Positions 8,289 through 53,223 of a stretch of DNA of 64,000 bases are shown here, one piece after another; the stretch's first letter is position 1, and every line of letters starts with the position of its first letter. Source of the stretch: Candidatus Multivoradales bacterium (GTDB taxonomy: Bacteria; Acidobacteriota; Thermoanaerobaculia; Multivoradales; Multivoraceae); the NCBI GenBank assembly GCA_965223325.1, contig CBDCWI010000002.1:712351-776350 (forward strand), in the 5' to 3' direction. The notes under the pieces are model-generated. The model had not been told where the DNA came from and did no database searches. It worked only from the letters and a program-made list of their open reading frames with translations. The translations under genes and the position numbers were made by a program.

Positions 8289-8438
8289 GGGCAGAACCGC
8301 CCGCACCACGCGGGGCTGTGGGGTGGGCTACACTGCCGATCCCTTTGTGACCGACTGATTGCGCAGAGCACACTGCCTACCAGGCCGCCGCACGGCTGCC
8401 TCGAGGGCCATCGTGTGCATGCTGGAAGGAGCTTTTCG

Positions 8439-9437
8439 ATGACCAGAACCCGCCAGGTCCACCTCGCCGCCCGCCCCGAAGGCCGTCCCGATCCGAGCCA
8501 CTTCAAAGTCGTCGAGATGGACTTGCCCGAACCGGGCGACGGCGAATTCCTGGTCGAGAACGAGTTCATGACGGTCGATCCGTACATGCGAGGCCGCATG
8601 CGGGACGTCAAATCGTACGTGCCACCCTTCCAGATCGACGAAGTCCTCGACGGCGGCTCGGTGGGGCGCATTGTCAGTTCCAACAACCCCGACTGGAAAG
8701 AGGGCGAGTGGGTTCTCGGAGGCCAGGGCTGGCGCGAGCACTACATCAGTGACGGCACCGGCCAGCGCAAGATCGATCCGGAGATCGCTCCCCCTTCGGC
8801 CTACCTGGGCGTTCTGGGAATGCCGGGCATGACGGCCTACATCGGCCTGCTCGACCTCGGTGAGCCCAAAGAAGGCGAAACGGTCTTCGTCTCCGGCGCC
8901 GCCGGTGCGGTCGGCAGCGTCGTCGGCCAGATCGCCAAGATCAAGGGTTGCCACGTTGCCGGTAGCGCCGGCTCGGCTGACAAGGTCAAACACCTCATCG
9001 ACGATCTCGGCTTCGACAGTGCCTTCAACTACAAAGACGGCGATCTGCACAAACAGCTCGCCACCGCCTGCCCCAATGGCATCGACATCTACTTCGAAAA
9101 CGTCGGCGGGCCGATGCTCGAAGCGGTGCTGATGCACATGAAGCCCTTCGGTCGAATCCCGGTGTGCGGAATGATCTCGCAGTACAACGCGACCGAGCCG
9201 GTCCCCGGGCCGAAGACCATCATTCAGGTCATTCCCAACCGCCTCAAGATCCAGGGCTTCATCGTCTCCGACCATTTTGACCGGCTCCCTGAGTTCACCC
9301 GCGATGTCGCCGGCTGGATCAGGGAAGGCAAGATCAAGGCCCGCGAGACCACCTTCGAAGGCATCGAGAAGGCACCCGATGCCTTCATCGGCCTGTTCTC
9401 CGGGGAGAACCTGGGGAAGATGCTCGTCAAGTTGTAG
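8439..9437 (+). CDS. NADP-dependent oxidoreductase (PGR/LTB4DH, CurA/YncB-like MDR)
   Basis: VDPYMRGRM, GMPGMTAY.GL, VSGAAGAVGSVVGQIAKIKG, FENVGG and GENLGKMLV motifs. Confidence 0.95.
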   Translation: MTRTRQVHLAARPEGRPDPSHFKVVEMDLPEPGDGEFLVENEFMTVDPYMRGRMRDVKSYVPPFQIDEVLDGGSVGRIVSSNNPDWKEGEWVLGGQGWREHYISDGTGQRKIDPEIAPPSAYLGVLGMPGMTAYIGLLDLGEPKEGETVFVSGAAGAVGSVVGQIAKIKGCHVAGSAGSADKVKHLIDDLGFDSAFNYKDGDLHKQLATACPNGIDIYFENVGGPMLEAVLMHMKPFGRIPVCGMISQYNATEPVPGPKTIIQVIPNRLKIQGFIVSDHFDRLPEFTRDVAGWIREGKIKARETTFEGIEKAPDAFIGLFSGENLGKMLVKL

Positions 9438-9526
9438 CGAGGGGCGCGGTCGTCAACGATTTGGTCGTCGGTTGGCGTACCTCGAGCAAGATGCATGGTT
9501 GGCGTTCGTACCACACCCCTCGCTAC
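9434..9526. repeat. GTAG-type REP-like inverted pair
   Basis: gtagcgaggggcgcggt (9434-9450) versus the reverse complement of 9510-9526 (gtagcgaggggtgtggt). Confidence 0.65.
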
Positions 9527-9527
9527 A

Positions 9528-10009
9528 GTCACCCTTGCGGCGATCGCGGTCCGGTGTGTCGGCCGCCTTCGTGGGCGCTCGCCCTGCAGGTGCGTCTTTG
9601 GACTTTGAAGGTCCGGCGCGCGCCGCGGATTCTTGGCTTCGTTGCCGCGCTCTACGCGTCCGGAAATGGAGTCCTTTCGCATCGTGCCTGCTGACCTTGA
9701 GGGAACAGTGCGCGTCGCGGGTTCTGGCCTTCGTTGCCACGCTCTGCGCGTCCGGACATGGAGTCCTTGTGCATCGCAAATGAAGGAGTGCGTTCGGGGC
9801 AACTAACCAACCCGGCCGCGGCGGCGGGCAGCACACTCCGGCGAAAAGGTGTCAACCGGCCGTTCGCCAGGAAACCCATGCTCCCTACGCGTTCTCACGA
9901 TCCACGTTTCATCGAAGGCAAGAATCCGCGGCGCGCGCTCGAACCCTCGAACGCCAAAGACGCGCCGGCAGGGCGAGCGCCCACAAAGGCCGCCCCCACA
10001 ACGGACCGC
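9528..10009. repeat. Mosaic of repeated units: roughly 110-bp inverted repeat (9528-9641 versus 9913-10009 plus 11923-11937) and 92-bp-period direct repeat (9618-9684 versus 9710-9776)
   Basis: By-eye alignment shows long shared strings such as gtgggcgctcgccctgc, cgcgcgccgcggattctt and gcgtccgga.atggagtcctt. Confidence 0.9.
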
Positions 10010-10013
10010 TTGG

Positions 10014-11922
10014 ATACGCCGGGATAAACCGGCATGGAGAAAGGAATGAGAGAGTCCCACCCTCGAAGGGGTAGCGACCCAGAGGGTCCCCGAGTCATGC
10101 GCCGGCTCCCGCGAGGGTGCGGTGAAGCGTTGACAGGGGCACACACAGGCCGGGTATTGAGCCGCGAAATAAGAATTTGGGAGTGCCGACGCTGTCAAGC
10201 GAAGCGGAAGGCGAGACTCCGTAGCGCGCTATCGCGAGCTCTGCGGCGACTCCCCGCGGTCGTAGACCCTGTGCATGTGTGGAATCTCCATGCGCGAGAA
10301 CCGGGAGATCCGCGATCTGGCCAGTTGGGTATCTGGTCCGCATCGGGAAGGCTAGAGGCCGTAAGCCGATGACGCACGGATGGCGGAAGTCAGACAGGCC
10401 CGTAGTACCTGCGAAGTCGTCGAACAACGGTGGGAGACCAGCGGCGGAGGCGGTGGAGGGAAGGGGCCTGGCCAAGGGGAACACGGGCAAGCAAAACGCA
10501 CCCCGGACACAGAGCCGGATGGAGAGTGCGAGCAATGCGCTGGGTCGTGTACGAGAAGCCGCCCGCAGGGGCAAGGAAGTGAAGTTCACAGCGCTTCTTC
10601 ACCACATCACGGTCGAGCGACTCCGGAGCGCATTTGACGTGTTGCACCGAGACGCAGCGGCAGGAGTGGACGGAGTGTCATGGAGCGAGTACGCAGAATC
10701 TTTGCTGAGCAATCTCGAGGACCTGCACTCTCGTGTCCACCGTGGGAGCTACCGGGCGAGTGCGACTCGTCGCGTCTACATCGAGAAATCGGATGGGCGG
10801 TTCCGACCGCTTGGCATCGCCACGTTGGAGGACAAGATCCTTCAGCGCGCCGTCGTCTCGGTGTTGGATGCGATCTACGAGGAAGACTTTCTCGGGTACT
10901 CATACGGATTCAGGCGAGGCCGCAGCCAGCACGATGCTTTGGATGCGCTATTCGTTGGAATCACAAAGCGGAAGGTGAACTGGGTGCTCGACGCAGACAT
11001 TCGTGGGTTCTTCGATGCCCTGGACCACGAGTGGCTGGTGAAGTTTCTCGAGCACCGTATCGGAGACCGTAGGATCCTTCGCCTCATCCAGAAATGGCTG
11101 AGGTCCGGAGTGATGGAAGACGGTAAGTGGCACGCGAGCACGCGGGGGACTCCTCAGGGGGCGACGATTTCGCCTCTCCTCGGGAACGTGTACCTGCACT
11201 ACGTGCTCGATCTCTGGGTCCAGCAGTGGAGGAAACGCAACGCGCTTGGGGACATGATCTTCGTGCGCTACGCGGATGACTTCATCGTTGGATTTGAGAG
11301 GCAGGAGGAGGCAGAACGATTCCTCGAGGAACTGAACCTGCGACTCCGTGACTTCTCGTTGGAGATCCAACCCGAGAAGACGCGCCTGCTGGAGTTTGGC
11401 CGCTTTGCGGCCTACAACCGACGCGCGCGAGGTCTCGGGCGGCCGGAGACCTTCGAGTTTCTAGGCTTTACGCACTGCTGTGCGCAGTCTAGTCGAGGGA
11501 GGTTCTTGCTGAAGCGCATCACGAGCCGCCACCGAATCCGCAGGACACTGAAGGCTGTCGGTACGGCCCTTCTGGGACACCGACACTCGCCGCTACCAGA
11601 GCAAGGTCTCTGGCTGGGATCCGTGGTGCGAGGCTTCAATGCCTACTACGGCGTACCCGGCAACTCAGCGGCGTTGAACGCCTTTCGACAGGAGGTCATT
11701 CGGCACTGGATGCGCGCTCTGCGCCGACGCAGTGACAAAGACCGCACGTCCTGGAAACGGATGTGGGCCCTGGTGGCCCACTACCTACCCAAAGCCCGAG
11801 TCCAACATCCCTGGCCTGATGAGCGACTTGTCGTCAATACCTGAGGCAGGAGCCCAGTGCATTAGCAGTGCACGCTGGGATCTGTGCGGGGGGCGCCGGG
11901 CAACCGGCGCTCCTACCGCGAT
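10014..11922 (+). mobile_element. Group II intron (endonuclease-less; resembles bacterial class E, class assignment is inference)
   Basis: Domain V gAGCccagtgc...gcACgctgggatc with AGC triad at 11851-11853, domain VI ending ctaccgcgAT at 11922, an RT ORF, and an intron-like 5' region (ccgg-gataaa-ccggcatggag...gagccgcgaaa...gaccctgtgcatg...gaaccgggagatcc). The 5' boundary is uncertain by 1-3 nt. Confidence 0.92.
10369..11844 (+). CDS. ltrA: Group II intron reverse transcriptase/maturase
   Basis: AAGVDG, RRVYIEKSDG..RPLGI..LEDK, SYGFR.GRSQHDAL, VLDADIRGFFD, GTPQGATISPLLGNVYLH, RYADDF and FLGF motifs; domain X ends HPWP; no HNH/En domain. Confidence 0.97.
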   Translation: MTHGWRKSDRPVVPAKSSNNGGRPAAEAVEGRGLAKGNTGKQNAPRTQSRMESASNALGRVREAARRGKEVKFTALLHHITVERLRSAFDVLHRDAAAGVDGVSWSEYAESLLSNLEDLHSRVHRGSYRASATRRVYIEKSDGRFRPLGIATLEDKILQRAVVSVLDAIYEEDFLGYSYGFRRGRSQHDALDALFVGITKRKVNWVLDADIRGFFDALDHEWLVKFLEHRIGDRRILRLIQKWLRSGVMEDGKWHASTRGTPQGATISPLLGNVYLHYVLDLWVQQWRKRNALGDMIFVRYADDFIVGFERQEEAERFLEELNLRLRDFSLEIQPEKTRLLEFGRFAAYNRRARGLGRPETFEFLGFTHCCAQSSRGRFLLKRITSRHRIRRTLKAVGTALLGHRHSPLPEQGLWLGSVVRGFNAYYGVPGNSAALNAFRQEVIRHWMRALRRRSDKDRTSWKRMWALVAHYLPKARVQHPWPDERLVVNT

Positions 11923-11938
11923 CGCCGCAAAGGTGACG

Positions 11939-11976
11939 CTCGTAGGGCCCGTGGTAAGAAGCACGGGCCCTACGAG
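11939..11976. repeat. Perfect 15-bp GTAG-containing hairpin (REP-like) just downstream of the intron
   Basis: ctcgtagggcccgtg-gtaagaag-cacgggccctacgag. Confidence 0.8.
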
Positions 11977-12141
11977 ACCTGAGTGAAACCTACTCAGGGA
12001 ATATCCCGTATCAGGTGCGGGTTTTCTCAGTCCGTCGATGAAGATTCGCCGAAGTTGGCCTAGATTTGCTAGATTTCGGTTGCCGATACACCTTCCGTGG
12101 CCCTTCGAGGGGCGGAAGCAGCCCCTGGAAGGGAGCACACT

Positions 12142-14604
12142 TTGAGCGAAAACAAGAAGTTCACCATTCCCCTGGTTGCCCTTCGGCAGCTGGTCCTGCT
12201 GCCGGGAGTGACCCTGCCGGTCGTGGCAGGTCGTCCACGCACCCTGCGGGCAATCGACGCCGCGACGTCAGATTCCGACAACAACCCCGACCAGCTCATC
12301 TTTTGCGTGCTGCAGCGTGAAAACTCCGATGAGATCGATCCCGGCGCGCTGCACACCATCGGCACGCTCGCTCGCATCGACCAGATCCAGCGCGGTCTCG
12401 GTGGCGCACAACTCCTGGTCAGTGGCCTGAAGCGCGCCATCGCACTGCGCATCGAAGACAAGGACGGTCACTACGAGGCCACCGTTACCGGGGCCGAGGA
12501 GATGATGCCGCAGGATGACAAGGACCTGGCCTTCGTCGCCTTGCACAAAGAGGCGCGTCAGCGGGCCAGTGAGCTCGGGCAGAAGACTGGCCTGCCGTCT
12601 GAGATCACCGAGCAGGTGCTCTCATCGGTCGATCATCCGGGACGCTTCGCCGACATGGTCGCGGGCTACCTCGATGTCGACGTCAGCGAACGACAGCGCA
12701 TCCTCGAGACTCTCGATATCGAAGAGCGCCTGCGACGCATCCTGATGCTGATCGGGCGCCAGCTGGGTGTCCTCGAAGCGCAGCAGGACATCAAGAGCGC
12801 CGTCCAGGAAGAGCTCGGTGACCGACAGCGCGAGATGTATCTGCGCGAGCAGCTCAAGGCGATTCAGCGCGAGCTCGGCGATGATGACGGCTCCGACGAT
12901 GACCTAGAAGAGCTGCGTGAACGCCTCCAGGCTCTCGATCTCGAGCCGGCGGCGCGCAAGGAGGTCGACCGTGAGCTCGGCCGTCTCGGTCGCATGAACC
13001 GTGAATCGATGGAGACTCAGGTCATTCGTTCCTTCCTCGAGACGGTGGCCGAACTGCCATGGAACGAGCGCTCCGTGGATGCCCTCGACCTCCTCGCAGC
13101 GAGCGAGATCCTCGACGAAGATCACCACGGCCTCGACGACGTCAAGGATCGGGTGCTCGAGTTCATGGCGGTACGCCAAATGCGCCAACGTCGCGGCGCA
13201 GCAGAACAGGACACCGACAGCGAAAACGGCGCCCAAAGCCAGAAGCGCGCCGAAGGTCGCAGCCCGATCCTGCTCTTCTCGGGGCCTCCGGGAGTTGGCA
13301 AGACATCGCTGGCGCGCTCGATTGCACGCGCAATGGGCCGTGAGTACGTGCGCATTTCGCTCGGTGGTGTACGCGACGAAGCGGACATTCGTGGCCATCG
13401 GCGGACCTACGTTGGCGCGATGCCCGGGCGCATCATCAAGGGCATGAAGGAGGCGGGGACGCGCAATCCGGTCTTCCTGCTCGACGAAGTCGACAAGCTG
13501 GGTGCGTCCATGCACGGTGATCCGGCCGCCGGCCTGCTCGAGGTCCTCGACCCAGCGCAGAACGACAGCTTTACCGACCACTACCTGGGTATCCCCTTCG
13601 ATCTTTCCGAAGTGATGTTCATCGCGACCGCAAACTTCGTCCAGAACATCCCCGGACCGCTGCTCGATCGCATGGAAGCCATCGACTTCTCCGGCTACAC
13701 CGAGGGCGAGAAGCTCGAGATCGCGCGCCGCTATCTGCTCCCGCGTCAGCTCGAAGAAGGTGGCCTGACCAGCGCGCAGCTCGAGGTCGGAGACGACGCT
13801 CTACAGGCAATCATCGCGCGCTACACCCGCGAGGCCGGCGTCAGGCAGCTCGAGCGCGAGCTCGGTCGAGTGGTGCGCAAGGTGGCCCGCAAGCTCTCGA
13901 CCTCGGCACCGGAAACGTCGATCCGTCTCGATGCGGAAAGCCTCACCGAGTTGCTCGGTCGCGAGAAGGTCCACCCTGAGCGCGCCGCCGAAGCCAGCGC
14001 AGTCGGCATCGCAACCGGGATGTACTACACCCCGGTCGGGGGCGACATCATGTTTGTCGAAGTTTCGACCATGTCGGGCAAAGGTGAGCTGGTGCTCACC
14101 GGGCAGCTCGGCGACGTGATGAAGGAGTCGGCGCGCGCCGCCTGGAGTTGGGCACGCGCAAATGCCGACCGTCTCGGGATTCCAGCCGAGCGCTTCGAAA
14201 GCGACGTGCACATCCACTGCCCCGCAGGAGCGATTCCCAAGGACGGTCCCTCCGCCGGCGTAACCATGGCCACCGCCCTGGTTTCCGCACTCAGCGGCCG
14301 CACTGCGCGTCATGACCTCGCCATGACCGGCGAGATCACGCTCTCGGGTCGAGTACTTCCGATTGGCGGCGTCAAAGAGAAGCTGCTGGGTGCTCTGCGC
14401 GCCGGAATCGACGAGGTCGTGATCCCGAAGGAGAACGAGAAGGATCTCGACGACCTCAGCGACGACGTACGCAGTCGCCTGGAGATCACTCTCGCCGGCA
14501 CCCTGGACGAGGTCCTCGACGCAGCGCTCAGCGGACCGGTCGACGCGCCTGTCCTGCATGAAGACCCGGCGGGTGGCGACGAACTGCCCGGCGAAGCGAA
14601 CTGA
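12142..14604 (+). CDS. lon: ATP-dependent Lon protease
   Basis: Lon N-domain, Walker [16 protein letters not shown], catalytic PKDGPSAG and GGVKEK. TTG start with GGGAG RBS. Confidence 0.98.
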
Positions 14605-14674: not shown

Positions 14675-15112
14675 TTGACCCTGGCGCCCTGGGAGCCAGA
14701 GAATGCTGCGGTGAATCCCGACTCTGTCTCGCCCGTGGAGCACTCGACAGCAACAGTCTCGACGGCTGAGGATACGCTCGGCAAGAGCGGCTACGGCAAC
14801 CTTCGCGACCTCGCCCTTCCGGTCCTGGTCTCGTCGTGTAGCAACATCGTGCTGGCGTGGCTCTACCTGCGTTCAGGCTGCCTAGGACTCGTCCTGACCG
14901 GTCCTATGGTCCTGCTCGCCGTCCAGGAGTTTCTGTACTTTGGGCACCTACCCCGAGAGGGGTACGAAGAGTTGAAGCGGCGCGGTCGCCTGATCGGGCT
15001 GTTCGAGCTCGGGATCGGGGTCTTCAACCCCGTGGCGTTCGTTTGCGGCGTCCTGCTTCTACTCGCCCTGCGGCGGAGGGCTCGGTCAGCCCAGCCAGCG
15101 TCGGCAACCTAG
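14675..15112 (+). CDS. Hypothetical small membrane protein (start uncertain, possibly GTG 14711)
   Basis: Three or four hydrophobic segments. Its stop TAG is part of the CTAG flanking the 158-bp element. Confidence 0.55.
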
Positions 15113-15270
15113 TACCCCGTACCATTGGAACGGATAGTGGCTGAGTGGATGATCGTGCTCGATATCAAGGCGTCACGACGCAGGCATATTGGTCTTCTGT
15201 CGAGGAGTGACAACGCAGAGATCGAGTGCGAGGAACGCTCAGACGCTGTGCGGTTCAATGGTACGGGGTA
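15113..15270. mobile_element. 158-bp inverted-repeat-bounded non-coding element (MITE-like), copy 1
   Basis: Perfect 15-bp TIR TACCCCGTACCATTG/CAATGGTACGGGGTA, flanked on both sides by CTAG (15109-15112 and 15271-15274). Confidence 0.85.
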
Positions 15271-15274
15271 CTAG

Positions 15275-30380: not shown

Positions 30381-31559
30381 ATGGACCTGACCATCTCGAA
30401 GAAGTACGAGCCTCTCCGTAGCGAGATTCGCGAGTTCCTCGACGCCCACCAGAAGCAGGCAGTCTCCGACAACGTCGGCGCTGGCGACGAGGAGGCCGCC
30501 CGGGGTTGGCAGAAGCTGTTGTTCGACCACGGCTACGTCGGCCGCACGATCCCCGCCGACTATGGCGGCGCCGGCCTCGAACCGGACCTCTTAGAAGCGA
30601 TCGTGATCGAGGAGGAGTTCCGAAAGGCACGCGTATCGCTCGGCTTGCACAACCAGGGCATCGACATGTTCGTGCCGACGGTTCTCCATTTCGGAACCGA
30701 AGAGCAGAAACGCGCCTACATCGGACCCACCATTCGCGGCGAGATGATCTGGTGCCAGGGCTACAGCGAGCCCGGCTCGGGCAGCGACCTGGCCTCGCTG
30801 ACCACCCGTGGCGAGCTCGACGGAGACGAGTACGTCATCAACGGTCAGAAGATCTGGACCAGCACAGCCGCTCAAGCCGACATGATGTTCGGTCTCTTTC
30901 GCACCGAGAAGGACGCCGGCAAACACGCTGGCATCTCCTACATGGTGCTGTCGATGGACACCCCGGGCATCGACGTCCGGCCGCTCAAGACGATGAACGG
31001 CGACAAGACCTTCAACGAAGTGTTCTTCACCAACGTCCGGGTTCCGCGCAAGAACGTCATCGGTAACCCGGGACAAGGCTGGGAGATCGGCACCTACACA
31101 CTGCGCCATGAGCGTCACATGCTGGGTCGACCGCAGGGCTCGCGGCGCTACCTCGAGAGCGCCGTCTCTGTACTCACCGATACCGGCAAGATCGACGACC
31201 CTCTCTTCCGCGAGCGGCTGATCCGGCTCGAGGCCAAAGTGATGGCGCTCGAGTTCCACGCCATGCGGCTGGTGACCGACGACCTCCAGAAGCGTGACTC
31301 GGGCGTCGCCGGCCTGGTGGTCAAGCTCTACGGCTGCCAACTCAACTACGACCTCTGCGCGCTGGCCATCGACGCCCTGGGCGAGCGCGGTCTGCTCAAG
31401 CCAGGCTCGCGCAACGTGCGTGACCACGGCGCCTGGCAGCAGAACTACATGTACGCCCTCGGCCTCATCATCGGCGGCGGCACCGCCCAGATTCAAAAGA
31501 ACATCATCAGCGAAGTAGGGCTCGGCATGCCCCGCGAACCCAAGGTTCGCGCCTCCTGA
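30381..31559 (+). CDS. Acyl-CoA dehydrogenase (FadE26/29-like catalytic subunit)
   Basis: WCQGYSEPGSGSDLASL, INGQKIWTS, FNEVFFTNVRVP, LRHER and IGGGTAQIQKN motifs. Confidence 0.93.
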   Translation: MDLTISKKYEPLRSEIREFLDAHQKQAVSDNVGAGDEEAARGWQKLLFDHGYVGRTIPADYGGAGLEPDLLEAIVIEEEFRKARVSLGLHNQGIDMFVPTVLHFGTEEQKRAYIGPTIRGEMIWCQGYSEPGSGSDLASLTTRGELDGDEYVINGQKIWTSTAAQADMMFGLFRTEKDAGKHAGISYMVLSMDTPGIDVRPLKTMNGDKTFNEVFFTNVRVPRKNVIGNPGQGWEIGTYTLRHERHMLGRPQGSRRYLESAVSVLTDTGKIDDPLFRERLIRLEAKVMALEFHAMRLVTDDLQKRDSGVAGLVVKLYGCQLNYDLCALAIDALGERGLLKPGSRNVRDHGAWQQNYMYALGLIIGGGTAQIQKNIISEVGLGMPREPKVRAS

Positions 31560-34995: not shown

Positions 34996-35679
34996 TCAGC
35001 GGCGCACGCCGCCATCGAGCACATCCTGGAGGATCTTCAGAGCCTTCCACCGGTTGTAGGCCGCGAGCATCGCCTGCTCCGGCCACGTACCTGGATCCGC
35101 GAGTTTGAAGTTCGGTCCCGCGGCGTCGAGAACCCGCTGCAAGCGTGGAATCTCGGCCCGGGAAAGTTCCATGAACGTCTTCACACCGTCCTCGTTGAGG
35201 AGCTCCTCGATCTTCGGGCCGATTCCCTCGATGATCTTGAGGTCATCGGGGCCCATGATCTCGAAGCCAGCAGCACGCGCCGCGGCCAGGTCGATGGTGG
35301 GTCCGAGCTCAAACGCCTTGAGGCGCGCTTCGAGCGCGGAGATTCTCGACAGGTGCGCCGGGTTGTCGACCTCGACGGTCTTCTCGACGATCTTCTCAAC
35401 CGTCTGCGGAGCACGTGCCTCGAGTTCGGCGATCTTGGCGACGAGCGCCGGGTTGTCGACCTCGACGACCTTCTCGACCTCGACGATCTTCTCAACGGTG
35501 TCGGGCGTACGAGCCTCGAGCTCGGCGATCTTCGCAATGTGGGCAGGGTTGTCGATCTCGACCTTTCGCTCGACGATCTTCTCCACCTCTATTTGGGGTC
35601 GCTTCAGCAAGCCGCTGAGCAACCACGCACCGAGCGCACCAGCAAGGTACGGCCAGAGTGCGCAAAGAAAGGAAGCCAT
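34996..35679 (-). CDS. Membrane-anchored protein with three VEKIVE..VDNPA repeats and a C-terminal helix-hairpin-helix (DDLKIIEGIGPK) domain
   Basis: Three repeats of about 30 aa; DDLKIIEGIGPKIEELL and DPGTWPEQA motifs. Confidence 0.8.
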   Translation of the reverse strand: MASFLCALWPYLAGALGAWLLSGLLKRPQIEVEKIVERKVEIDNPAHIAKIAELEARTPDTVEKIVEVEKVVEVDNPALVAKIAELEARAPQTVEKIVEKTVEVDNPAHLSRISALEARLKAFELGPTIDLAAARAAGFEIMGPDDLKIIEGIGPKIEELLNEDGVKTFMELSRAEIPRLQRVLDAAGPNFKLADPGTWPEQAMLAAYNRWKALKILQDVLDGGVRR

Positions 35680-51987: not shown

Positions 51988-53223
51988 TTGGACTTCAACG
52001 ACTCACCCGAACAGGCCGAGTTCCGCCGAGAGGCCAGGGAATGGTTGGCAGCACATGCACCGACCTTCGAAGTCCCAGCTCACCGCGACAACGCCGCCGT
52101 CAACTCCGAGGAAGAACTCGCGCACGCCAAGAAGTGGCAGGCGCAAAAAGCCGATGCAGGCTACGCCACGATGCATTGGCCCGAGCGTTTCGGCGGGCGC
52201 AATCTGCCCCGCATCTACAGCGTGATCTACGACCAGGAGGAAGCACGCTACCGCGTACCGCGGGGCGCCTTCTTCAACATCGGCATCAACTTCGGTGGCC
52301 CCACCGTCATCGAGTACGGGTCACGTGAACTCCAGGAGCGTCTGCTACCACGCCTGCGTCGCGCCGACGACATCTGGTGCCAGCTGTTCTCAGAACCCGG
52401 CGCAGGCTCCGACCTCGCTGGCCTGCGCACGCGCGCCGAGCGTGACGGCGATGAGTGGGTGATCAATGGCCAGAAGATCTGGTCGACCTACGCGCAATAC
52501 GCCGACTGGGGCATCCTGGTGACGCGCCACGACCCTGGCCTACCAAAGCACAAGGGCCTCACCTACTTCCTGCTCGACATGAAGACCGAGGGCGTCGAAC
52601 CGCGGCCCATCCAGCAGGCGTCGGGAGCGTCGCACTTCAACGAAGTCTTCTTGACCAACGTTCGCATCGCCGATGCCTACCGGCTCGGCGAGGTTGGAGC
52701 GGGCTGGCAGGTGGCGATCACCACGCTCATGAATGAACGCCTGGGCGCCAACTCGGTAGAAGCACCGCCAACCTTCGAGCAGATCTTCCGGCTCACGCGA
52801 GCCGCCGAGCTCGAGAGCGGTCGCGCCATCGACGACCCTGCCGTGCGCTCCGAGCTCGCCGACTGGTACGTCAAGTTTCGCGGCCTCGAACTGGTCCAGC
52901 AGCGAACTCTGACGCGGCTGGCGCAGGGGAGACAGCCTGGGCCCGAAGCCTCGATTCGCAAGTTGGTCGCTGGCGACCTGCAGCAGGAGATCGCCAGCTT
53001 CGGCATGGACCTGTGCGAGATGACCGGCAGTAGAACCGACGATGCCGGCGGTCCCGGTGCGCTCTTCGCACGGGCGCTCCTCGGCTGCCCGGCAACGCGC
53101 ATTGCCGGCGGTTCCGACGAGATCCTGCGCAACATTCTCGCCGAACGTGTGCTGGGGCTTCCGGGTGACATCCGGGTCGACCGCGACGTTGCATTCCGTG
53201 ACATTCCCACCGGCCGGGCCTGA
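51988..53223 (+). CDS. Acyl-CoA dehydrogenase
   Basis: WCQLFSEPGAGSDLAGLRT, FNEVF, LMNER and IAGGSDEILRN motifs. Confidence 0.95.
   Translation: MDFNDSPEQAEFRREAREWLAAHAPTFEVPAHRDNAAVNSEEELAHAKKWQAQKADAGYATMHWPERFGGRNLPRIYSVIYDQEEARYRVPRGAFFNIGINFGGPTVIEYGSRELQERLLPRLRRADDIWCQLFSEPGAGSDLAGLRTRAERDGDEWVINGQKIWSTYAQYADWGILVTRHDPGLPKHKGLTYFLLDMKTEGVEPRPIQQASGASHFNEVFLTNVRIADAYRLGEVGAGWQVAITTLMNERLGANSVEAPPTFEQIFRLTRAAELESGRAIDDPAVRSELADWYVKFRGLELVQQRTLTRLAQGRQPGPEASIRKLVAGDLQQEIASFGMDLCEMTGSRTDDAGGPGALFARALLGCPATRIAGGSDEILRNILAERVLGLPGDIRVDRDVAFRDIPTGRA

Follow-up and report, generated by a model that had tools for sequence, protein, structure and literature searches.

An intact and probably mobile group II intron in a dispersed, non-coding inverted repeat of a Multivoradales bacterium

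Why does one copy of an inverted repeat carry a group II intron while its partner close by is empty? This question is raised by a locus of Candidatus Multivoradales bacterium (assembly GCA_965223325.1, contig CBDCWI010000002.1), which we analyzed within a stretch of 64,000 nucleotides, hereafter the window (positions 712,351 to 776,350 of the forward strand of the contig). Between a zinc-type oxidoreductase gene and lon, the window holds two inverted arms of a repeat. Arm 1 is empty, while a group II intron of 1910 nt (5'-GAUACG...GAU-3', positions 10013-11922, + strand) splits arm 2. We consider it likely that this is an intact, currently mobile intron, which retrohomed into a site carried by a dispersed, non-coding and partly palindromic repeat.

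The repeat itself was delimited by inverted-repeat pairs and alignments. Arm 1, the empty copy, spans 9521-9648 (- strand), and the site equivalent to the intron insertion lies between 9543 and 9542. Arm 2, the occupied copy, consists of a 5' part at 9905-10012 (+ strand), with raised depth over 9892-10012, and a 3' part which resumes past the intron at 11923-11958 (+ strand), where the depth is down to host level by 11959. Both arms share 84.6% identity over 117 alignment columns with one gap. Their local alignment score of 68 compares with 8.7 +/- 1.15 for 500 shuffles (maximum 15.5), and the inverted repeat is thus far above chance. An earlier inspection of the letters alone, here called the sequence-only reading, had claimed that the repeat resumes right after the 3' end of the intron and that the empty copy carries the last 8 nt of the intron followed by the 3' exon. 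Both statements hold: the repeat continues at exactly 11923, and arm 1 contains ACCGCGAT|CGCCGCAA, which is identical to the final 8 nt of the intron plus the 3' exon.

The same reading had proposed a group II intron in one repeat copy, with the site fixed by the empty copy, and this identification is borne out by the similarity of the arms, the ribozyme and the encoded protein. The model RF02005 (group-II-D1D4-6) matches 10051-10269 over its full length with 180.6 bits (E 9e-53; gathering score 49). Among 147 highly conserved columns of the 5' ribozyme, the window deviates at three, while the median of its relatives is two, and one of the three deviations is a compensated change from G-C to A-U. 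At the 3' end, a domain V of 33 nt with an AGC triad (sequence GAGCCC...) folds at 11850-11882 (+ strand) and is conserved in relatives. It is followed by domain VI (11886-11919, + strand) with a bulged U11914 and A11915 and then by the tail GAU; A11915, which lies 8 nt before the 3' end, is the putative branch point. Furthermore, the domain VI sequence ...CCCTACCGCGAY is conserved in relatives, and domains V and VI together fold with z = -3.9. Despite this good fold and the conservation, the general domain V-VI model RF00029 gave no match on 11845-11922 at E <= 1. Annotation pipelines relying on RF00029 would consequently miss the 3' end of this intron lineage.

The intron encodes a reverse transcriptase (RT)/maturase of 491 aa in an intact open reading frame (ORF) at 10369-11844 (+ strand), with the YADD motif at 11269-11280; the 5' part of the frame overlaps the J2/3-D3 portion of the ribozyme. 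For this intron-encoded protein (IEP), Pfam recognizes RVT_1 alone (E 9e-39). An endonuclease domain was not recognizable by Pfam, and the frame stops 188 aa past YADD. More than 8000 homologues exist, the closest with 69% identity, while a look-up of the exact IEP returned no record. The PDB matches are group II RTs, namely IIC RTs with 136-145 bits, LtrA with 134 and TeI4h with 128 bits, and such similar scores do not favor the IIC RTs over LtrA or TeI4h. A literature search for the IEP class of the Ralstonia and Burkholderia relatives yielded no assignment. A decayed intron is ruled out by the relative-like conservation of the ribozyme and the intact ORF. The element is intact, which is consistent with the polymorphism and copy number described below.

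Two minor observations concern the coding region. The stretch 10369-10434 encodes the conserved N-terminal peptide ..KSDRPVVPxK.. of the IEP, and it also holds a small domain III-like hairpin and the gamma candidate A10392, which lies inside the ORF. The conservation of this peptide may be one at the RNA level, with the true start further downstream, for example at the ATG at 10519. At position 10545 the window has T where every intron contig in the public runs X1, X4, X5 and X6 has C. The change falls in a synonymous Gly codon and reflects either a substitution private to this copy or a difference in assembly.

To define the boundaries, 83 related loci were gathered and each alignment column was tested against the last bases of the 5' exon. 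Two pairings between exon-binding sites (EBS) and intron-binding sites (IBS) stood out. EBS1-IBS1 covariation over about 60 relatives reached a mutual information (MI) of 0.5-1.0 with the register held fixed, and complementarity was 93-98% once the register had been corrected for each locus; across relatives, the per-position complementarity of the 6-bp pairing is 83-98%. EBS3 against position +1 of the 3' exon gave an MI of 1.14 with 92% complementarity (52 relatives). In the window, EBS1 is CAAGCG (10196-10201, + strand), which covaries with exon positions -1 to -6 and sits in the terminal loop of a domain I hairpin, as placed by the Rfam structure line. It forms 6/6 Watson-Crick pairs with IBS1 CGCTTG, the final 6 nt of the 5' exon (10007-10012, + strand). 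These 6 nt are borne by the repeat, and an EBS-IBS pairing that involves the repeat was the test on which the sequence-only reading had staked itself beforehand. EBS3 is G10262 (+ strand), pairing with the IBS3 base C11923 (+ strand), the first base of the 3' exon, and every high-depth intron contig continues into CGCCGCAA.

The 5' end required more care. The introns of the relatives start GTGCGCCGGGATAAACC, and the window reads ...GCTTGGATACGCCGGGATAAACC. The pairing register differs by locus: it is 0 for starts with GTGCG or GAGCG and lies 2 nt upstream for apparent starts with AAGCG, TAGCG or CAGCG. The register of the window is 1 nt upstream, and the intron thus starts at G10013 (GAUACG), with CGCTTG as IBS1. 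Intron-less allele contigs agree, as they link 10012 straight to 11923 ('skips 1910, GA..AT') with no further difference. An AUACG start with G1 lost, as suggested by a fixed-anchor alignment, is ruled out by both the EBS1 register and the empty allele. For the boundaries claimed from the letters, the 3' end therefore stands, while the proposed 5' end (10010 or 10014, with arm 2 ending at 10009) was off by 3-4 nt. Of the boundary motifs, the 3' terminal AU conforms; the 5' end GAUACG does not match GUGYG, yet its 5' G is kept. For EBS2, no alignment column covaried with exon positions -7 to -18 (MI <= 0.42), and a loop complementarity test gave z = 1.5. Taken together, the intron is endonuclease-less and IIB-like in its exon recognition.

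Unusual 5' ends occur in relatives as well. About one third of them lack GUGYG, and the EBS1-IBS1 register gives ends such as GAGCG, GANAGCG, GAUGCG and GUUGCG, always with the 5' G kept: GA|AAGCG in L008, L012, L015 and L058, GA|TAGCG in L019 and L046, GA|CAGCG in L071, GTTGCG in L013 and GATGCG in L062. The canonical GUGCG is found among the relatives, too. Insertions of 1-2 nt after G1 seem to be tolerated in this intron lineage, because the GAUACG of the window is validated by an empty-site allele. A separate peculiarity concerns a sub-lineage of relatives in which EBS1 resembles a Shine-Dalgarno sequence (AAGGAG, GGAGGT, AGGAGA). These introns (L020, L027, L035, L040, L043, L047, L049, L050, L052, L057, L063, L064 and L065, and also L028, L062 and L071) lie directly after ...CAT-N5-9-CTCC(TT). 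They are thus antisense to a gene on the opposite strand and directly precede its ribosome-binding site and start codon.

Is the intron still moving? Copy data were taken from the public runs X1-X13, of which X1 and X3 represent the same sample. In X3, a contig of 3041 nt joins 10012 to 11923 with zero differences at a depth of 189, which equals host depth, and in X1 a contig of 873 nt does the same. The filled junction is found in X2 and X4. The locus is therefore empty in one sample and filled in two. Runs with intron-less or filled junctions have longest contigs of 153-213 kb and flat depth across genes; thus they are DNA, and the joint represents an intron-less allele and not spliced RNA. 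In X1-X3, the ratio of intron depth to flank depth, measured as assembler word depth in metagenome-sized runs, is about 11-13, which corresponds to about as many copies per genome equivalent. A near-identical intron was also seen in several other samples labelled as different organisms (X5-X13), without the flanks of this locus; in X6 the upstream flank differs and reads ...CCAACCGCCAACGGCAACCG|CAACGGACCGCTTG. The element has thus spread beyond this strain.

The repeat, in turn, is dispersed in the same genome. The arm core (9577-9639) occurs at about 12-14 times host depth, and at least four other long contigs end in arm sequence with 80-90% identity in X1, X2 and X3 (lengths in X1: 11.7, 29.5, 7.9 and 1.8 kb). 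The depth of these contigs follows host depth across the three runs (about 20, 9 and 190), and other host-depth contigs end in arm 1. At least two further intron copies lie within recognizable repeat copies. One of these occupied flanks reads ...CTGCAGGGCG.CCACCAAGGC... / ...CTGCAGGGCG.CCACCAAGGCACCCG..., the second ...CAGGGCGGAAACCACAGCAGGC... / ...CAGGGCGGAAACCACAGCAGGCAACA..., and both are recognizable as the same repeat family. Empty family members exist elsewhere, too: a 119-nt contig with a depth of 40 in X1 and ...GCACGCTTG|CGCCGCAA in X2. Homing into the dispersed repeat is thereby supported.

Why, then, is arm 1 empty? If the intron is removed at its corrected ends, arm 2 reads ...GGACCGC TTG|CGCCGCAAAGGTGAC and arm 1 reads ...GGACCGC GAT|CGCCGCAAGGGTGAC. 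Both are of equal length, and they differ at the junction by three adjacent substitutions (positions -3 to -1) without any indel; an apparent 3-nt indel turned out to be an artefact of the wrong 5' boundary. The triplet GAT in arm 1 (9543-9545, - strand), opposite TTG in arm 2, equals the last 3 nt of the intron and is a candidate scar. It is also present in the strain with the empty arm 2, with zero differences. Arm 1 pairs with EBS1 at only 3/6 positions, and the mismatches are the three next to the splice site. Since GAT breaks IBS1 at -1 to -3, arm 1 is not a target, which explains its emptiness.

The sequence-only reading had offered, as an alternative, that copy 1 is a relic of an earlier insertion. 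For GAT this is the best available reading, and one we hold tentatively, at somewhat below an even chance: the triplet may be the scar of an earlier insertion in arm 1. Two routes could have produced it, given that the motif ACCGC forms exon positions -8 to -4 and, in essentially all relatives, also the 3' strand of domain VI. Either a filled arm 1 underwent a deletion from the exon copy of ACCGC to the copy in domain VI, or an abortive, extremely 5'-truncated retrohoming took place, in which the cDNA of the last 8 intron nt would jump to the exon at ACCGC. Both routes would yield the arm 1 sequence exactly; conversion from arm 2, however, gives the same product. Template-switch correction in imperfect inverted repeats is an established mechanism, and a switch in at CGCCGCAA and out at ACCGC would transfer to arm 1, by gene conversion, the sequence at which the intron of arm 2 meets its 3' exon. 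Ordinary divergence is a further way to arrive at GAT, as the arms are only about 85% identical and contain other clustered differences. That GAT arose in either of these two ways and is not a scar has an appreciable probability, though we would not favor it. If three changes are taken as given, an exact match to the last 3 nt of the intron at the junction has a probability of about 1/27; without this condition, it is far smaller. Conversion, in addition, would require a later precise loss of the intron, because the strain with the empty arm 2 has GAT as well, and is thus less parsimonious. If the scar is real, three bases of the intron stayed in place and IBS1 was lost. Such footprints would immunize used sites against re-invasion and could be searched genome-wide, and GAT would then record an intron loss or an abortive retrohoming, events that are rarely traceable in bacteria.

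How closely the intron is bound to the repeat can be judged from the sequence shared by its copies. On the 5' side, the high-depth unitig common to the intron copies reaches 14 nt beyond the junction in X1 and X6 (start at 9999), 11 nt in X3 (10002) and 6 nt in X4 (10007) and X2; on the 3' side, it continues for 8 nt into CGCCGCAA. The nested unitigs of X2 reach depths of 70, 95 and 103, compared with a base of about 8, and thus about 8-9 of the 12-13 copies (about 70%) share CAACGGACCGCTTG, the 14 nt upstream. One might argue that about 7 paired bases (CGCTTG|C) suffice for the intron and that the repeat happens to carry them without being a preferred harbor, since some X2 copies share just 6-7 nt of the 5' flank and distant relatives sit in unrelated sequences that match their own EBS1. 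We regard such an incidental association as unlikely. It is at odds with the 14 nt common to most X2 copies and with unitigs that begin 14 or 11 nt upstream in X1, X6 and X3. By simple base-frequency arithmetic, a 7-nt site is expected hundreds of times in a 4.5-Mb genome, while at least three occupied sites are recognizably the same repeat. Nor do the distant relatives contradict homing into the repeat. The expectation that homologous introns flank the same repeat held for at least two other copies of this intron, whereas distant relatives (55-69% IEP identity) are found in unrelated contexts; as each matches its own EBS1, such contexts are to be expected. The claim of a dispersed repeat as homing site therefore stands on the arm-ending contigs, the 12-14-fold depth and the at least two other occupied copies, but it has to be narrowed: the repeat is the main recurrent landing site, not the sole one.

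Repeat and intron could also have been copied together, by duplication, inter-repeat recombination or transposition of the repeat. Identical flanks of 14 and 8 nt in many copies and the locus with its MITE-like (miniature inverted-repeat transposable element) inverted arms of about 130 nt would fit such a passive amplification. However, the flanks of the copies diverge 6-21 nt from the junction and are only family-level similar beyond, while the introns are near-identical. Intron copies that are far more alike than their host repeats speak for homing into repeats and not for co-duplication. Moreover, alleles of this locus that have and lack the intron differ in nothing but the intron between its exact ends, and empty repeat copies exist. 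Passive amplification is thus improbable.

The sequence-only reading had further drawn an analogy to class C introns, which would recognize a DNA stem-loop (terminator-like, attC-like or a hairpin of a repetitive extragenic palindrome, REP) and insert just downstream of it with little sequence specificity. The hallmarks of this class are a CGC triad, a distal stem of domain V that is 2 bp shorter, an IBS1-EBS1 pairing of 3-4 bp and a 5'-exon stem-loop (Toor et al., 2006; PMC1702495). Strong hairpins do lie on the outer side of each arm: a perfect 15-bp hairpin at 11939-11976 (+ strand, z = -6.8), 16 nt downstream of the insertion site, and its arm 1 counterpart of 18 bp at 9433-9450/9510-9527 (z = -2.4). 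We consider the class C explanation very improbable and discard the analogy, since the compact ribozyme with no EBS2 detected, the IEP without an endonuclease domain, the intergenic, palindrome-rich site and the strong upstream hairpins of a few relatives (L071, L025 and L076) are outweighed by the AGC triad in a domain V of 33 nt, the 6-bp EBS1-IBS1 pairing, a window 5' exon without a significant hairpin (z = 0.71), the lack of enrichment of upstream hairpins in relatives (mean z = -0.05, n = 56; strong in 4/56) and the fact that the strong hairpin near the site belongs to the 3' exon.

We therefore return to retrohoming of a mobile intron into a site of the dispersed repeat. The repeat lies in the 3' untranslated region between the oxidoreductase gene (8415-9437, + strand; stop codon at 9437), its upstream neighbor, and lon (12097-14604, + strand) downstream. 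The repeat is followed by a terminator-like hairpin and a T run (12005-12031, + strand), and the intron is in sense orientation between these and the oxidoreductase stop codon. As it lies in sense before a terminator-like site, it could be transcribed by read-through without breaking any gene. The site is set by base pairing, in which EBS1 (CAAGCG) binds CGCTTG and EBS3 (G) binds C, and further flank positions, at least from -14 to +8 and common to most copies, are probably read by the IEP. By analogy with RmInt1 and RmInt2, the intron would reverse splice into DNA at replication forks, with nascent strands priming the cDNA; as the IEP lacks an endonuclease, priming at replication forks is to be presumed.

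Several points weigh against this reading or limit it. The GC skew of the + strand is weakly negative, and an orientation toward the lagging-strand template can thus not be claimed. The 5' end GAUACG departs from GUGYG, and the boundaries are shown at the DNA level, with splicing itself putative. The copy numbers reflect word depth of the assembler, not a finished genome. Beyond this strain, the intron occurs in other strains or organisms: X5-X13 contain it without these flanks, and in X4 the depth ratio rises to about 18-20. In some intron copies, no more than 6-11 nt of the 5' flank are shared, so that the repeat is not an exclusive target, and at least one perfect CGCTTG|C site is empty. 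Finally, the reading of GAT as a scar is based on a single site.

Among known systems, the closest precedent is RmInt2 of Sinorhizobium meliloti, an endonuclease-less class D (IIB3) intron of which all copies reside in the inverted repeats of the insertion sequence (IS) ISRm17, with both repeats occupied and two oppositely oriented sites per element (PMC4615759; PMC5894124). Both RmInt2 and the intron described here are multi-copy (7 versus about 12 copies) and encode an endonuclease-less RT/maturase. They share a homing site in the inverted repeats of a dispersed element with two opposite sites per unit, as well as recognition by EBS1 and EBS3 pairing plus distal flank positions. In contrast to RmInt2, the host element here is non-coding, without transposase gene or Pfam match, and is not a known IS. 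In addition, no EBS2-IBS2 pairing was detected here, the intron starts with GAUACG and only one of the two arms is a usable site. RmInt1 homes into ISRm2011-2 and uses ectopic sites such as oxi1 (PMC5894124). Like the present intron, it targets a repeated element, occasionally inserts at sites that share only the IBS and shows presence/absence polymorphism in natural populations. It differs in that IBS1, IBS2 and IBS3 are recognized, the start motif is canonical and the target lies inside the coding region of the IS.

Group IIC introns such as B.h.I1 and IIC-attC (PMC1702495; PMC4424553) resemble this intron in their compact ribozyme without EBS2, the missing endonuclease domain and the intergenic location near palindromes. 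Against this stand the triad (AGC instead of CGC), the EBS1 of 6 bp instead of 3-4 bp, the missing 5'-exon stem-loop and the IEP, for which the PDB comparison shows IIC RTs to be no nearer than LtrA or TeI4h. C.te.I1 and fungal rRNA IIB1 introns are known cases of shifted or non-GUGYG 5' splice sites (PMC4424553). In these, as here, the 5' splice site is set by the IBS1-EBS1 pairing, upstream of the position given by the GUGYG register. However, the shift here is only 1 nt (2 nt in relatives starting with GANAGCG), and the element has kept its bulged branch A and its RT ORF and is demonstrably mobile.

Dispersed extragenic palindromic repeats serve as landing sites for other elements as well: REPs are targeted by ISPpu9, ISPpu10 and IS1397, and 2/9 copies of a group II intron of P. 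putida KT2440 lie in REPs (PMC1525189). Those repeats measure about 35 nt and number in the hundreds, while here units of about 130-145 nt occur in about a dozen copies and are targeted by RNA-DNA base pairing. The repeat is extragenic and dispersed like a REP or a bacterial interspersed mosaic element (BIME). However, 20-40-nt units in hundreds of copies and BIME clusters are lacking, and the REP/BIME label which the sequence-only reading had attached to it has to be dropped. Thus homing to repeats is a known lifestyle, and what is unusual here is the GAUACG end and the possible three-base scar.

The locus is a clean natural case of ongoing group II intron movement in a bacterium; public data contain it both filled and empty. 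Its landing site in a dispersed non-coding repeat, within the 3' untranslated region of a gene, makes the insertion harmless. The strategy known from RmInt2 and ISRm17, to use the inverted repeats of a repeated element, is extended to a repeat that is not an IS. Furthermore, intron annotation and the rules on 5' splice sites profit from a mobile intron that lacks a GUGYG start and is validated by its empty site.

What kind of repeat hosts the intron? The host interval between the oxidoreductase gene and lon is itself non-coding, and a Pfam search with its ORFs gave no match. Within the 64-kb window, the repeat was found at this locus only. A search of Rfam at a permissive threshold returned no family for the repeat, and a search of plasmids with the repeat unit returned no match. 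A 22-mer of the repeat scanned over 185,579 species genomes, a set outside which the source genome lies, gave two chance hits, both in coding DNA. Of the features of MITEs and IS elements, inverted arms of about 130 nt are present, while a target-site duplication is not obvious at about 9521 and 11958 and no parent IS was identified. The spacer between the arms holds a tandem direct repeat with units of 84-92 nt (9601-9684 and 9693-9776, 82% identity), the first of which overlaps inner arm 1.

Other repeats of the window are of a different kind. Downstream of lon, a separate 37-nt inverted repeat (15109-15274, 84% complementary, 92-nt spacer) is unrelated to the one studied here. At 35324-35587, a unit of 90-96 nt occurs in three tandem copies with 67-82% identity and is probably a repeated protein motif inside a gene. 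The segments 30734-30857 and 52359-52482, as well as 31010-31039 and 52635-52664, are 71-90% alike, collinear and 21.6 kb apart, which suggests paralogous genes.

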